Below, one piece after another: positions 12,135 through 16,813 of a stretch of DNA of 26,662 bases. The stretch is taken from assembly GCA_019057795.1 (NCBI GenBank), contig JAHLWS010000086.1, forward strand, positions 1 through 26,662. Direction: 5' to 3'. Positions within the stretch are counted from its first letter, which is position 1. Each line of letters starts with the position of its first letter. The stretch comes from Promethearchaeota archaeon. Its GTDB lineage: Archaea > Asgardarchaeota > Lokiarchaeia > Sigyniarchaeales > SOKP01. Made by a program: the position numbers and the translations under genes. The notes below the pieces were generated by a model. That model was given only the letters and a program-made list of their open reading frames with translations. It was not told the origin of the DNA and ran no database searches.

Positions 12135-12436
12135 CCACTTAATAAAGTTCGAATTATATATGGCTTATTTAAGTATAAAAAGTAAAATGCTTAGTGAGGA
12201 ATTGTACCTATCAAGGTTCAAGAGTATTTAATGTTCCAGAGGAGAAAAGAAGCGATGTGAATATTGCAGTTCATAAGGTAGCTTATTAACCTAAAGAAAA
12301 TTTAGAATTGGGTCCATAGATTGAGAGAGGGTTAAAAGGTGTAAAATAAATCAATAGTGTTTAAAATTAATATTTAGAGGTTTTATAAAATAAGCTAAAA
12401 ATTATTGTTATTTTCTCTCGATATTTCTTTTTTTAA

Positions 12437-12545
12437 TGTTATAATAATAAGTACAAAAGGGAGTGCGATTTGCCAAAATTACGCTCCCTTTTTATGGCTA
12501 TACCGAAAGATTTAACTTCCGTTTTCCTTTCGGTTTTTTATTTTA
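12437..12545 (+). promoter_or_regulatory. extended -10 promoter followed by two terminator-like hairpins (leader or small RNA upstream of rep gene)
   Basis: TGTTATAAT at 12437-12445; AAAAGGGAGTG...CGCTCCCTTTT (12455-12493); ACCGAAAG...CTTTCGGT plus T-run (12502-12545). Confidence 0.55.
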
Positions 12546-12685: not shown

Positions 12686-13735
12686 ATTATATTTAAAAGT
12701 ATAAATGAGTACATAAAATACGAGTATAGTCTAATACCAATTGATAGGGAAAAGAAACCTTATATATATTGGAAGTCCTACCAATATAAAAAAGCAAACA
12801 TAGAAGATATTTTTGGTTGGTATAATAAATTTCGTGATGTAAATATTGGAATAGTTACCGGGAATATAAGTAAGTTAGCGGTTATTGATGTTGACGATCC
12901 TAATCTCTTGCCGGAGTTAAAAGAATATTTACCGGAGATAAAAGAAACAACCAGGGTTAGAACGAGAAGGGGGTATCATTACTATTTCTCTCTCAGTGGC
13001 GAATACGTTAAAAGCACCAACAACTTATTCGGCAAAAGACTTGAATTAAAAAGTAATGGAACCTATGTTGTGGCTCCCCCATCGATAATAAAAGCCCATC
13101 GATATGTTTTTGAAATTCCTCTTAGTGAGATGCTTCCCATACCAAAATTATTAATCAAAAAAGAAAGGGAACTGGCTTTTTGTGTAGAGGATAGAGAGCA
13201 TAAAGTTTTTAAAATACCAAAATATCACGGTCAAAAAGTTGACTGCATACGCCAGATATTAAGTAGGGATTTAGAGGAAGGAGAGAGAAACAACAGCTTA
13301 TTTATTCTCTATAATCTCTTACTCCAAAATAAGAATACGGAAGAATATTCAAAAAAGTTAGTTATTAATAAAAACAAATCATTATCAAAACCCTTAACTG
13401 AATTGGATTTAAAAAAGTTCTGCCGGAAAGCTTATAAGTATGGGTGTAGTGGTATCAGAGATAAGCTTGCTTATATAAAATGTGAGGCTTGCGGGTATAG
13501 GTTTAAGGATGGTAAATTAAAAGATAGTAATATTTTGATTAAAAATATAAGAATTTTGCCGGAATTAAGTAATGCTCAACGCGGAGTAGCTTGTCTTTTG
13601 GGAACCGTTTTTGAGGGTGAATATCCTTCGATAAACAAGATAGCAGAAACAGCGAATATGAATTTTGGAACTGTTAAGCATGCAATTAAAATATTAAAAG
13701 AAATGCTGGTTATCGATGAGGCTTTGTATAACTAA
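12686..13735 (+). CDS. bifunctional DNA primase/polymerase (Prim-Pol, AEP superfamily) with PriCT-like domain, Cys cluster and C-terminal HTH
   Basis: Frame open from 12686: SLIPI..EKKPYIYW, NIGIVTG.ISKLAVIDVD, TRRGYHYYF, YVVAPPS, EGERNNSLF, C...CEAC and terminal HTH. The TTG start at 12908 would omit catalytic motif I. Confidence 0.88.
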   Translation: MIFKSINEYIKYEYSLIPIDREKKPYIYWKSYQYKKANIEDIFGWYNKFRDVNIGIVTGNISKLAVIDVDDPNLLPELKEYLPEIKETTRVRTRRGYHYYFSLSGEYVKSTNNLFGKRLELKSNGTYVVAPPSIIKAHRYVFEIPLSEMLPIPKLLIKKERELAFCVEDREHKVFKIPKYHGQKVDCIRQILSRDLEEGERNNSLFILYNLLLQNKNTEEYSKKLVINKNKSLSKPLTELDLKKFCRKAYKYGCSGIRDKLAYIKCEACGYRFKDGKLKDSNILIKNIRILPELSNAQRGVACLLGTVFEGEYPSINKIAETANMNFGTVKHAIKILKEMLVIDEALYN

Positions 13736-13744
13736 GATTATAAA

Positions 13745-13766
13745 ACCCCTTCAGTTTTTAAGGGGT
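13745..13766 (+). terminator. hairpin after Prim-Pol gene
   Basis: ACCCCTT...AAGGGGT. Confidence 0.45.
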
Positions 13767-14119
13767 GATTTCTATATTTTTCAAGGGTTTTAGCGTAAAA
13801 ATGCGGACTAATATACTAAGGTTTTAGGAATTTATCTCTTTCTTCTATTCTTTTATTTATTGTCTCATTTTTTATCTCTTGTCTTTATGGTATAAACGAA
13901 ATATCCAAAGAAGGATTTTAGAAAGTGATAGAAGCTTTAAAAAATTGAGGTCCCACTCTTTCTCTCTCCTTATAAATTATTACCAGGCCAGGACTCATGC
14001 TTAATTTAGATCTAATTTAATTCACTTTATCTAATCCTGATTTATCAATTCTGGCCACTCTGACTAATCTAATTTACCAGGTAAATTTAATCCACTCCGG
14101 CTATCCCTAATTTTACGAC

Positions 14120-16102
14120 TCAACCACGCGCGGGGCGGGTAGCTTTCCTTCCCCCTTAAATCCCCCCTAAAACCCCCCTCTTATCCCCCTTCTTTTTATT
14201 ATTGCTCCTTGCTTCAAGAGCTACGCCCGCGGGAACGCTCTCAAGCTTAAATGTAGGCTATGTCGCTCTGACGGTCCCGCTTATGCTCCGCTCTGTTCAG
14301 CACCGCAACAAAAAAAAGGTTAGGCTATGATTCATTAGGGGGGAAGCATTAAGGGGGAAGGAAAAACTACGGTCGATTCACCCCCTACTCTACAAGCATA
14401 AGCGCAGGTATTATCGAGACCCTCTCTCCCTTGCCCCGCCCCTGTTTGCGAACCTTTTCGTGCATCTGTCATCGTTTGTGATTTAGTCTTATCCCCTACA
14501 AAAAAGAGATAAAAAAAATAAATGAAAAAAACAAGAGCGGGGATTTTTTTATCTCCCTTTTTCGGTGGCTCTATTTATCGGATTCCATGCAGTTAAGCGA
14601 TAAGTAAAAACATCCAACTAATAAAAAGTTAAAAGAATTGCCTTTTATATATAAACTTTTTATTGTTGTATTTTTTACCTATCGCCAGGAGAAGAGGAGA
14701 GGCAATTCCCTCTCCTGGTAAACAGTAATTTACCAGGAGAAGAATTTGCCAGGAAAAAGCCAAAAGCAATAAGAATAATCACACTCAAAAAAAATAACTA
14801 TATTTTGAGAAAAAGAAAAATATAATTATTTTTTATTGTGTCATTAAAAATCACGAAGGTTAAATATTATGTGATAAGGGAAAATCACCCCCTATCACAT
14901 AATATTATTTTTTTAAAAAAGGGTTTCCGTCTAACTACCAGACAGAAGAACGGGTAATCCCAGGCAATAAGAGAAAAAAATTATTTAAGGTATATATTCT
15001 GGTTTTTTTCTCCTATTGCCTGAAACATTATTTATCGGATTCTTTGCGTTTACGCGATAAGTAAAAAAGACCTCAAAACAAAAAGAAAAACCCTTTTTGG
15101 TTTAAGATTTTTTTACCTATCGCGGGCCCTGTTAAGTGAGTATCTACTGAGCAGGGCAGGGAGAAGACGAACGCTTAAAAGATATATAAGAAGGGAAAAT
15201 CACCCCCTCTTATATATCTTTATTCTGATATAAAATGTGTAATGGTTAGCGAACAGTGGATTAGTCCTATCCCCGGAAAAACAAGATAAAAAGTAAATGA
15301 AGGAATAATTGCAGGAACTTTTTACCTTCATTTTCAGTGGCTAATGTTATCGGATTCTTAATGGTTGGCGATAAGTAAAAACATCCATAAATAAAATATT
15401 AAAAGACCTGTCTGCGTGCGGACACGCACAGGCAGAAGAGAAACATTTTATTTATGTAGTTTTCACCTATCGCCAGGGAAGGATCATCTTTTTTTCTTCT
15501 CTTTGCAATTTCTTCTCCTGGCGTTTGTAGAAGCCAGTGCCGCAAAAAATTCTCCTGCTTAAATTGTTTGCCTGCATTTTTTTGCGGTGCCTGAGTCTTC
15601 TATAAACGCCATCGGTGCCGCACATATAATCTCTTAGGATAGTTTTAGTTTTTTTTATCTGCTCTACCTGGAGTGTACACACGCAGGCAGATAAAAAATA
15701 TTTAAACGTAGAAGTATAGTGAACAGGAACAGGGAGGGAAGGTGGGGAAGCCATCCGATGACTAGAAATAGAGATTTTTCCCTACGATAAGAAGTATCTA
15801 ATTTAGCCCGCCTTTATATTTTTAACCAGGCTAAAAAAGCTTTTTGTTGGTTAAAAATATAATGCTTTTTTTGCTATACATAACAAAGCTTTATCGGATA
15901 AGATATGCATGAAATTATTTCTTGTAGAATGTCCGATAGAGTCTTGTTATGTATTGGCAGACTTTCAAATAAGCTTCTTAGCAAAAAAGCTCTTGGCGGG
16001 CGGTCGTGGGGGTGAGATGACCAGAAGTTATTTACCAAGAAGTCAATAAAAGCAGGTTAACAGATCATTTTAATAAAATACCGAGGGAGAGAGAAAAAGA
16101 GG
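14120..16102 (+). ncRNA. putative large structured non-coding RNA or folded ssDNA region with repeated hairpin modules
   Basis: No credible ORF; dense array of long inverted repeats; three TTATCGGATTC...GCGATAAGTAAAAA...ACCTATCGC modules; two GGGAAAATCACCCC-capped hairpins with different stems. Confidence 0.6.
15981..16102. repeat. cargo-slot left repeat L1
   Basis: About 122-bp imperfect direct repeat of 17152-17273 (TGGCGGGCGGTCGTGG...AGGTTAACAGATCATTT...GAGAGAAAAAGAGG). Confidence 0.9.
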
Positions 16103-16147
16103 CCATCTACAATCGATTTCAATAATTTTCCTAATGATTATTATATT

Positions 16148-16813
16148 CTAAGTGGGGTTACTATTTTTAAATCTCATACCGGATGCAATCATTAATTGCA
16201 ATGTTCTCGATAGATGAGTGTTTTCAACATAAGGAGTATCTTTTTTATTCATAATCTTTAAAATCTTAGCAATCATTTCATCTATTGTGATAACTTTAAG
16301 TTTTATATTTACTTTCTTTTCTTTGAAATAATTCTTAATATCTTTAGAATTCTCAAAATCGCTTTTATCCTTTAATGATCCTTTTGTTATTTTGGTACAT
16401 AATATTACATATTCTAGTTCTATTTCTTTAGTATCAACAACATTTAATTCTTTTCTTAATATTTTCAAGAATGAATTAGTCCATCTATGTATACAAAGTT
16501 CTCTGAATGCACACCAATCATCTTTTCTTCCAGTAGTTTTAGTAGGTTGGTTATTTAAAGCATTCTCCAATGTATTTTTGAATTTTGATATGTTAAAACC
16601 GCCCTGCCACGATTTGCAGCTAACAGTAATAATTTTATTTCTTTCATTAGTATCAATAGTTATTAAATCTATATCAGAATGTACAGAATCATATTTGGCT
16701 ATATATGTTGGTTCTTCTTTTGATGGTCTAAATTTAATATTATGTTTTGTAAAGCAACCAACTTTTTTAGAATAAAAATCTTCTGCAATTTGTTCTAATA
16801 TATCTTCTTTCAT
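16148..16813 (-). CDS. putative PD-(D/E)xK-fold nuclease (restriction-endonuclease-like cargo)
   Basis: MKEDILEQ...HSDIDL...VSCKSWQGG (E..D..SxK variant); ATG at 16813 after GAGGT RBS. Confidence 0.7.
   Translation of the reverse strand: MKEDILEQIAEDFYSKKVGCFTKHNIKFRPSKEEPTYIAKYDSVHSDIDLITIDTNERNKIITVSCKSWQGGFNISKFKNTLENALNNQPTKTTGRKDDWCAFRELCIHRWTNSFLKILRKELNVVDTKEIELEYVILCTKITKGSLKDKSDFENSKDIKNYFKEKKVNIKLKVITIDEMIAKILKIMNKKDTPYVENTHLSRTLQLMIASGMRFKNSNPT

Follow-up and report, generated by a model that had tools for sequence, protein, structure and literature searches.

What are the hairpins that lie directly 3' of a primase-polymerase (Prim-Pol) gene on contig JAHLWS010000086.1 of the Promethearchaeota archaeon assembly GCA_019057795.1, and why do they repeatedly carry the same apparent mismatch? 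The whole 26.7-kb contig (26,662 nucleotides), referred to as the window, was analysed. A first-pass annotation, made from the letters of the sequence, had described five hairpins sharing the internal motif 5'-ATAAG-3' opposite 5'-CCTAT-3' and had proposed repeated recognition sites for one protein, a proposal that conservation of the motif in homologues would have to bear out. The comparisons described below indicate that the ATAAG/CCTAT 'mismatch' is an invariant G·T (in RNA, G·U) wobble within the 8-bp foot of long hairpins whose folding strand is the minus strand. Together with apex hairpins of conserved loop, these form a modular non-coding tract 3' of a gene encoding a Prim-Pol–PriCT-1–HTH protein, in what appears to be a plasmid-like element of uncultured sediment bacteria. 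By analogy with known systems, they may act as single-stranded DNA (ssDNA) priming or origin signals for the adjacent protein, a reading to which we assign a probability of roughly 0.4.

All five motif pairs were recovered by direct reading and by a repeat search:

Pair 1: GCGATAAG at 14597 and CCTATCGC at 14678
Pair 2: GTGATAAG at 14871 and CCTAT at 14891
Pair 3: GCAATAAG at 14964 and CCTAT at 15012
Pair 4: GCGATAAG at 15054 and its partner at 15116
Pair 5: GCGATAAG at 15368 and its partner at 15466

In each of them, the plus strand has A facing C and the minus strand G facing U, as had been annotated. Between 14480 and 15480, the pattern ATAAG-N(8-110)-CCTAT occurs six times on the plus strand and not at all on the minus strand, while 2000 dinucleotide shuffles gave a mean of 0.22 and a maximum of 4 occurrences, none of them reaching 5. 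All hairpins fold far better than 200 dinucleotide shuffles (z = -5.8 to -9.4 for the main ones). The sharing of the motif among five hairpins is therefore real in the annotated form; their independence is not, as four of them are paralogues of one family. Three are clear copies of one unit of ~220 nt, composed of a small hairpin, a GGATTC linker, the main hairpin with its GCGATAAG...CCTATCGC foot and a purine tract. The 14964/15012 hairpin is a diverged fourth copy (repeat family D1; E = 0.0015 with a covariance model built from relatives). In the remaining one, apex hairpin 1, the motif consists of the apex's own A·C opposition beside a GGG/CCC clamp, joined to the ATA of the stem. Apex hairpin 2 carries the same wobble in a context that reads AGAAG/CCTCT. 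The two apex hairpins (14863-14906 and 15178-15221, inverted repeats I11 and I12, with 18-nt arms) indeed share an identical 17-nt apex, AGGGAAAATCACCCCCT.

To follow the motif in relatives, loci were collected through the Prim-Pol gene, three from genome contigs (an Atribacteria single-cell genome and a metagenome-assembled genome) and 80 from metagenome contigs, the latter representing 80 of more than 564 Prim-Pol stretches in metagenome contigs. A regular expression that admits all four base combinations at the mismatch (CGATA[AG]G...C[CT]TATCG) retrieved 39 hairpins from the window and 22 loci. In every one of the 39, the gene strand carries A in its 5' arm and C in its 3' arm, and a Watson-Crick repair of the wobble was seen in none. 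All 39 are located downstream of Prim-Pol in one orientation, at distances of 0.4-4 kb in the 23 sources. No units were found in 202 kb of upstream flanks on either strand, nor inverted units in 137 kb of downstream sequence.

An alignment of the 37 distinct minus-strand copies showed the 8-bp foot GCGAUAGG/CUUAUCGC, including the G·U pair, to be invariant (37/37). The next variable pair is G·U in 23 copies and A·U in 13, an alternation that maintains pairing only on the minus strand. The upper stem, by comparison, covaries: double (compensatory) changes occur at eight pairs, 95.7% of the cells are paired as opposed to 53-59% in slid controls, and the observed covariation was reached by no shuffle. 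Two diverged copies (14961-15022 in the window and one at position 1665 of locus L036) have the foot GCAAUAGG/CUUAUUGC, a compensatory change that retains the wobble, and in one copy (locus L035) a bulge replaces the wobble. Since A and C were never repaired in a hairpin that has otherwise diverged to a mean column identity of 59%, the wobble foot and the apex loop appear to be read sequence-specifically. At the level of the alignments, feet and apex loops are thus shown to be under sequence-specific selection and upper stems under structural selection, and the motif is neither a chance occurrence nor a tolerated defect.

The same data bear on the idea that GCGATAAG and GCGATAGG are half-sites of a duplex operator or iteron for the HTH domain, possibly extruded as a cruciform. 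The adjacent protein does contain an HTH domain and the half-sites are invariant; however, the intervening 50-90 bp keep their complementarity by compensatory changes, which a duplex site would not need, and the consistent strand asymmetry of the wobble does not suit a symmetric duplex or cruciform role. We consider this explanation very improbable.

Unit and apex hairpins were present in 13 of the 21 loci whose Prim-Pol protein is at least 70% identical and whose downstream flank measures at least 1.5 kb, and in none of the eight loci of a clade with 58-66% identity. The latter clade (L073-L101) has downstream hairpins of its own, mostly folding best on the minus strand, among them a conserved 95-nt hairpin ~200 nt after the gene, one with a GGGGG..UUUUCC apex and one with a UUAUCG/CGAUAG duplex near its tip.

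The apex GGGAAAATCACCCC, with up to two changes allowed, was found in 17 sources, where it tops 29 distinct hairpins with three unrelated stems (alpha, beta and gamma); all copies share one orientation and lie downstream of Prim-Pol. Of these 29 hairpins, 28 are more stable when folded from the minus strand, and G·U pairs make up 68 of 634 pairs in the minus-strand folds and 13 of 554 in the plus-strand folds. The hairpins retain the minus-strand loop GGGG-GUG-AUUUU-CCC, which opens with GUG in all 29 clear copies, with the following bases varying. Alpha and gamma apex hairpins carry U-rich tails, the alpha ones on both strands. Three pairings involving these elements were tried and abandoned. 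A switch pairing TTATCGGATTC with GCGATAAG has its upstream TTATCG in the window's three units and in only two other loci; a kissing interaction between the apex loop and GTGATTT at the starts of the units was discarded, this partner not being conserved; and antisense pairing of the loop with the Prim-Pol start region amounts to a 7-nt AT-rich match.

The first-pass annotation had recorded the minus-strand G·U pair without drawing its consequence, namely that folding belongs to the minus strand. With RNA parameters, the minus-strand fold was the more stable for all eight hairpins between 14497 and 15475, by a margin of 1.8-12.5 kcal/mol, and the four hairpins evaluated with DNA parameters also favoured it, by 1.0-4.3 kcal/mol. 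Among helices of at least 10 pairs, minus-strand wobbles predominate from ~14100 to 15480; the polarity flips beyond ~15500, and the hairpins at 15126-15157 and 15876-15954 likewise favour the plus strand. Taken together, unit and apex hairpins are shown to occur in one orientation only and to have their best fold on the minus strand, which is the non-coding strand of Prim-Pol.

A rival reading is that of ordinary terminators or insulators between convergent and cassette genes, whose shared motifs would have been inherited by duplication. The tract is located between convergent genes, a plus-strand T7 follows apex hairpin 1 and the alpha apex hairpins have their U-rich tails on both strands, all of which would suit termination. 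Yet the unit hairpins do not belong to the class of intrinsic terminators (a GC-rich stem plus a U run), being devoid of a U tail on either strand, and termination needs neither an invariant foot or wobble, nor a conserved loop, nor a fixed orientation. A plus-strand reading also leaves the conserved A·C mismatch unexplained. It is thus improbable that the hairpins are no more than terminators.

We rank an ssDNA signal first among the possible functions and a minus-strand RNA second. The tract lies directly behind the gene of a primase-polymerase with a DNA-binding domain, in a plasmid-like context, and its stems are long, near-perfect and AT-rich (19-33 bp), as is usual for DNA hairpin signals. 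We infer that the hairpins act as folded ssDNA. They would fold when the minus strand is unwound or displaced; once folded, they would mark the place where the element's own primase-polymerase, and possibly host enzymes, bind, and the primase-polymerase would start the complementary strand there. The wobble could then serve to distinguish the folded minus strand both from the duplex and from a folded plus strand. Parallels would be the ssiA/ssiB sites of RSF1010 for RepB', the stem-loop behind orf904 of pRN1 and the sso or ssi sites of other plasmids.

Several points weigh against this ssDNA reading. There is no sign of a single-stranded stage in the element's life, and genes for a helicase, a relaxase or a rolling-circle Rep were not seen. 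The units all point the same way, while RSF1010 has one site per strand, and a modular tract of ~2.3 kb is very long for an origin. The energy gained through the wobble is large only with RNA parameters (4.5-12.5 kcal/mol, compared to 1.0-4.3 kcal/mol for DNA), and ~10% G·U pairs with few other mismatches are the typical pattern of an RNA helix. The 330-nt nested M2 domain at the start of the hairpin region looks more like an RNA fold, and relatives of the tract occur in two marine-sediment metatranscriptomes. Prim-Pol is the sole constant neighbour of the hairpins in loci that were gathered through Prim-Pol, so that this association arises from the way in which the data set was built. Finally, the parallel in the GTG trinucleotide discussed below is an analogy and not a test.

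Some of these points favour a role of the hairpins as RNA. The minus strand would then be transcribed, from promoters of its own or by read-through from the cargo genes on the right, and the hairpins would act as small RNAs or as stabilising or processing sites in 3' untranslated regions, and an RNA-binding protein or nuclease would bind the G·U foot and the apex loop. The strictly kept G·U pair, the G·U/A·U alternation and the ~10% share of G·U pairs are a classic RNA signature, and the advantage of the minus strand is much larger under RNA than under DNA parameters. M2 forms a nested long-range fold with a lower energy on the minus strand (RNAalifold of 13 sequences: -81.5 kcal/mol, compared to -64.0 kcal/mol on the plus strand). 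Moreover, the tract is faced by convergent minus-strand genes in the window, L027 and L047, a minus-strand terminator-like hairpin is present at 14925-14947, and U runs follow the alpha apex hairpins.

Metatranscriptome contigs cover relatives of the tract, and RNA run X20 displays a single depth spike at 15177-15313. Yet contigs from RNA runs show presence only and give neither strand nor ends, and the depth of the tract relative to the Prim-Pol gene is mostly about the same as in a DNA run. The stretches within 14629-15039 left uncovered by the RNA runs are uninformative because the sequence there is specific to the window. On the other side of the balance, a consensus promoter scan gave no excess of matches and no convincing or conserved minus-strand promoter, the neighbouring cargo is encoded on the plus strand in L026 and L035, near-perfect duplexes of 19-33 bp would be substrates of RNase III, and the hairpins have no constant RNA-binding-protein neighbour. 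Rfam, searched with the whole window, yielded no match at gathering thresholds, and a permissive search of 13400-16200 returned chance-level matches only, all of them far below threshold. tRNA or tmRNA genes were not found. A function as minus-strand RNA is possible, if rather doubtful.

Whichever molecule acts, the hairpins are parts of a larger layout, the elements of which are listed with their coordinates and strands:

Left part of the contig: metabolic genes, including a TRAP transporter and M20 peptidases
12686..13735, plus: Prim-Pol/PriCT-1/HTH_36 gene; frame open from 12686, first ATG/GTG/TTG at 12908
13736 to ~16147: gene-free tract directly 3' of the Prim-Pol gene, its middle occupied by the hairpins
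14084..14507, minus: M2, a GC-rich long-range nested domain kept in ~20 loci
14478..14700, minus: unit A (covariance model R1, 73 bits), with a small hairpin at 14500-14561, the GGATTC linker, the main hairpin at 14596-14686 with the foot GCGATAAG/CCTATCGC, and the purine tract
14701..14750, minus: 23-bp hairpin after unit A, with three minus-strand G·U pairs (-34.2 kcal/mol minus, -26.5 plus)
14789..14834, minus: AT-rich 18-bp hairpin (I10)
14863..14906, minus: apex hairpin 1 on a gamma stem (I11), apex GGGAAAATCACCCCC, containing the pair 14871/14891 (-25.3 minus, -20.8 plus)
14925..14947, minus: terminator-like hairpin with a minus-strand T6, facing the plus-strand T7 after apex hairpin 1
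14961..15022, minus: diverged fourth unit hairpin (I5, D1; covariance model E 0.0015)
15030..15127, minus: unit B (76 bits), with a short type-2 hairpin at 15053-15124 (-33.8 minus, -23.4 plus)
15126..15157, plus: hairpin of exceptional polarity (-17.2 plus, -11.4 minus)
15178..15221, minus: apex hairpin 2 on an alpha stem (I12), with the same apex as hairpin 1; a cargo slot follows in relatives
15255..15480, minus: unit C (82 bits), with a small hairpin at 15283-15328 and the main hairpin at 15366-15475 (-51.4 minus, -38.9 plus)
15407-15436: GC mini-hairpin of 30 nt inserted in the loop of unit C, also present in L048
15484..16009, strand not assigned: module M5, conserved, following C-type units
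Right of the tract: two minus-strand genes without assigned function, then a group of DUF1659, DUF2922, holin and M15 peptidase genes

M2 contains a pair of perfect 16-bp arms (I14) at 14144 and 14349. The foot of the diverged hairpin at 14961-15022, GCAATAAG/CCTATTGC, differs by a compensatory G-C to A-T change and retains the wobble. In M5, the hairpin at 15876-15954 is the one that favours the plus strand (-34.3 kcal/mol, compared to -22.5 kcal/mol on the minus strand). Between M2 and the Prim-Pol terminator, positions 13830-14120 form an AT-rich, iteron-like stretch with short direct repeats (TTATCTCTT twice, CTAATTTA and TAATC). As to the mini-hairpin at 15407-15436, the same piece sits within the Prim-Pol gene of relatives, judging from joints in the RNA runs, and it has many different flanks in run X18 and a single copy in this assembly; it may be a tiny mobile palindrome.

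The modules are reshuffled among loci, with the usual order being Prim-Pol, unit, M2, type-2 unit, beta apex, alpha apex, slot, unit and M5. The window's own slot behind the alpha apex (15222-15282) is empty; in relatives, it is filled by unrelated two-gene cassettes, encoded on the minus strand in L027, L048 and L051 and on the plus strand in L026 and L035. Behind the first unit of L038 lie a type I methylase-specificity fusion and fragments of transposases. The junctions of the cargo lie 25-55 nt from the hairpins or within the small hairpin H1, and not at the foot.

Such reshuffling, together with cargo that varies from the methylase-specificity fusion (L038) to the two-gene cassettes (L026/L035 and L027/L048/L051), would be expected of folded single-strand recombination sites, resembling attC sites or the ends of HUH transposases, that bound exchangeable cassettes. 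The anatomy is also attC-like: the core at the foot is conserved and inverted, an imperfection is obligatory, the central stem is variable (68-104 nt) and only one strand folds. Against this stand the position of the junctions away from the foot, the absence of an R''/R' core (GTTRRRY), the many empty slots and the gene content: no capsid or coat-protein gene, HUH gene or tyrosine or serine recombinase gene recurs within ~5 kb in the 84 sources. Recombination sites are consequently an unlikely explanation. In the first-pass annotation, the hairpins had been compared with coat-protein packaging signals and with HUH or recombinase sites, and DUF1659/DUF2922 had been named beside Prim-Pol as a possible reader. 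Folded and repeated sites were borne out; the coat-protein, HUH and recombinase readings were not. DUF1659/DUF2922 genes occur in only four of the 84 sources (the window, L027, L035 and L088), one of which (L088) belongs to the clade without the motif, and are not an obligate partner of the hairpins. A staphylococcal DUF1659/DUF2922 pair has been linked to mRNA stability (preprint, doi 10.1101/2022.10.19.512975).

The protein that, in the ssDNA reading, would recognise the hairpins matches Pfam Prim-Pol at residues 8-143 (E 1e-21); among 22 relatives, PriCT_1 is matched by 14 and HTH_36 by 13. In public protein sets, 398 relatives were detected (E <= 1e-5), and the few named ones are labelled Atribacterota. 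The AlphaFold model of the protein is of low quality (pLDDT 55), and a sequence search of the PDB gave weak wHTH matches only. Its reading frame is conserved between 12686 and 12908, the first ATG/GTG/TTG falling after the catalytic DVDD motif, and ~25 relatives are likewise called at 275 aa. The conservation of the frame ahead of the first usual start codon suggests a non-canonical start (ATT or ATA) or a recoding event. Upstream of the gene, at 12418-12545, a good promoter match (TCGATA-N16-TATAAT with TG) precedes a pair of plus-strand terminator hairpins, and the depth of RNA run X19 in this region is ~10x that of the next bin; the region is a candidate for a leader or small RNA that controls Prim-Pol. 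In 24 loci, drawn from both clades, Prim-Pol is immediately preceded by one to four PAS/GAF/HD-GYP genes in tandem, and a RepA-like initiator (PF10134) is found further upstream in nine loci. A search of the neighbouring genes with PADLOC and PHROGs identified only 'primase' and the type I methylase of L038.

The host assignment of the window deserves caution. Its GC content is 35.8%, compared to 31.4% for the genome, near the upper end of the range among contigs of the bin; by tetranucleotide distance, it comes 9th among 82 contigs. Within the 4.95-Mb assembly, all copies of the unit hairpin lie in this tract. Among 135 genomes of the assembly's family, covariance model R1 found only the window's own copies and blastn with the tract returned only AT-rich noise, and the Prim-Pol protein was detected in none of 399 other genomes of the phylum (E <= 1e-30). 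Mis-binning of the contig is one possibility, a mobile element that is rarely binned another. The runs that contain the stretch are cold-seep and marine-sediment metagenomes. Three pattern scans of viral contigs yielded, among the matches listed, chance matches only (a giant-virus-like contig and GC-rich coding DNA), so that nothing points to a virus.

Atribacterota dominate many subseafloor and cold-seep sediments. To our knowledge, their mobile elements and replication signals are essentially uncharted, and we know of no characterised plasmids or phages from the phylum. The non-coding hairpin tract behind the primase gene is undescribed. It is defined by two motifs, the foot GCGAUAGG/CUUAUCGC with its obligatory wobble and the GUG-opening apex loop, both conserved and orientation-locked in dozens of metagenome contigs beside a primase-polymerase. 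The motifs offer a handle on template choice by a bacterial Prim-Pol/PriCT-1/HTH protein and a marker for finding and delimiting the elements and their cargo slots in metagenomes. Should the hairpins act as RNA, they would represent a new structured RNA family that is not in Rfam. A wider picture, which we put forward tentatively and think unlikely, is that of a widespread Atribacterota-type plasmid-like replicon, in which wobble foot and GTG loop would be loading and start sites of the primase-polymerase and the hairpins would flank exchangeable cargo slots, in the manner of a leading region programmed by the single strand; alternatively, the tract would be a new modular structured-RNA family.

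It remains to compare the hairpins with known systems. Integron attC sites have an R''/R' core (RYYYAAC ... GTTRRRY) and an IntI integrase close by. The hairpins resemble them in their inverted core, obligatory imperfections, variable stem, folding of one strand and adjoining variable cassettes; membership was rejected, given that the foot reads GCGATAAG ... CCTATCGC without an R''/R' consensus, no integrase is present and the junctions are not at the foot. The ends of IS200/IS605 or REP/RAYT elements are short subterminal hairpins (20-40 nt) associated with an HUH transposase and many genomic copies. Here, the hairpins measure 70-110 nt, their copies are confined to the tract and no HUH gene accompanies them, so that this class was rejected as well. 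The ssoA origins of rolling-circle plasmids are orientation-specific folded ssDNA with RSB at the foot, CS-6 in the loop and divergent stems. Orientation-specific folding and conserved foot and loop blocks on divergent stems are shared with the present hairpins, whereas a rolling-circle Rep gene, RSB and CS-6 are lacking and foot and loop motifs reside on separate hairpins.

The Frpo/ssi single-stranded promoters are same-orientation hairpin modules in plasmid leading regions, among cargo that includes methyltransferases, and imperfections of their stems are functional (PMC11541004). Several strand-specific hairpins pointing the same way amid variable cargo, including methyltransferases, are likewise seen here; in contrast, the stems contain no convincing -35/-10 pair, no oriT or transfer genes are nearby and the cargo is oriented both ways. 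The best Frpo-like hexamers (GCGATA-N17-TAAAAT) lie on the minus-strand 5' arm of type-1 units and are not kept in type-2 units.

In RSF1010 (IncQ), RepB' recognises the ssiA/ssiB hairpins and begins synthesis in a GTG (PMC8567376). The likeness consists in an ssDNA hairpin in a replication region that is read by the element's own primase of the AEP fold with a helix-bundle domain, in a hairpin-foot sequence that determines specificity and in a GTG involved in initiation (PMC8567376). The ssiA/ssiB sites are 40 nt long with the hairpin at nt 7-27, lie one each on opposite strands of oriV and go with the RepA/RepB'/RepC genes. The hairpins described here measure 70-110 nt, number three to four per element with all 39 in one orientation, have no sequence similarity to these sites and no RepA helicase or RepC partners in sight. 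They were thus not classed as IncQ ssi sites, as size, copy layout, strand arrangement and gene partners do not fit.

The archaeal plasmid pRN1 requires a 100-nt stem-loop downstream of orf904 (PMC4234260), and its primase requires a GTG in the template (PMC2965215). Here, too, long stem-loops lie 3' of a Prim-Pol gene; stem integrity, which matters in pRN1 (PMC4234260), is conserved by compensatory changes, and the GTG of the pRN1 template (PMC2965215) has a possible counterpart in the apex loop of the folding strand. pRN1 has a single stem-loop, and its ORF904 protein also comprises a helicase; the present case differs in its bacterial-type PriCT-1 and HTH protein, its hairpin arrays and its invariant wobble. 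Although they belong to no named family, the hairpins would, by analogy, work most like primase-specific single-strand initiation sites or the origin stem-loops of pRN-type plasmids.

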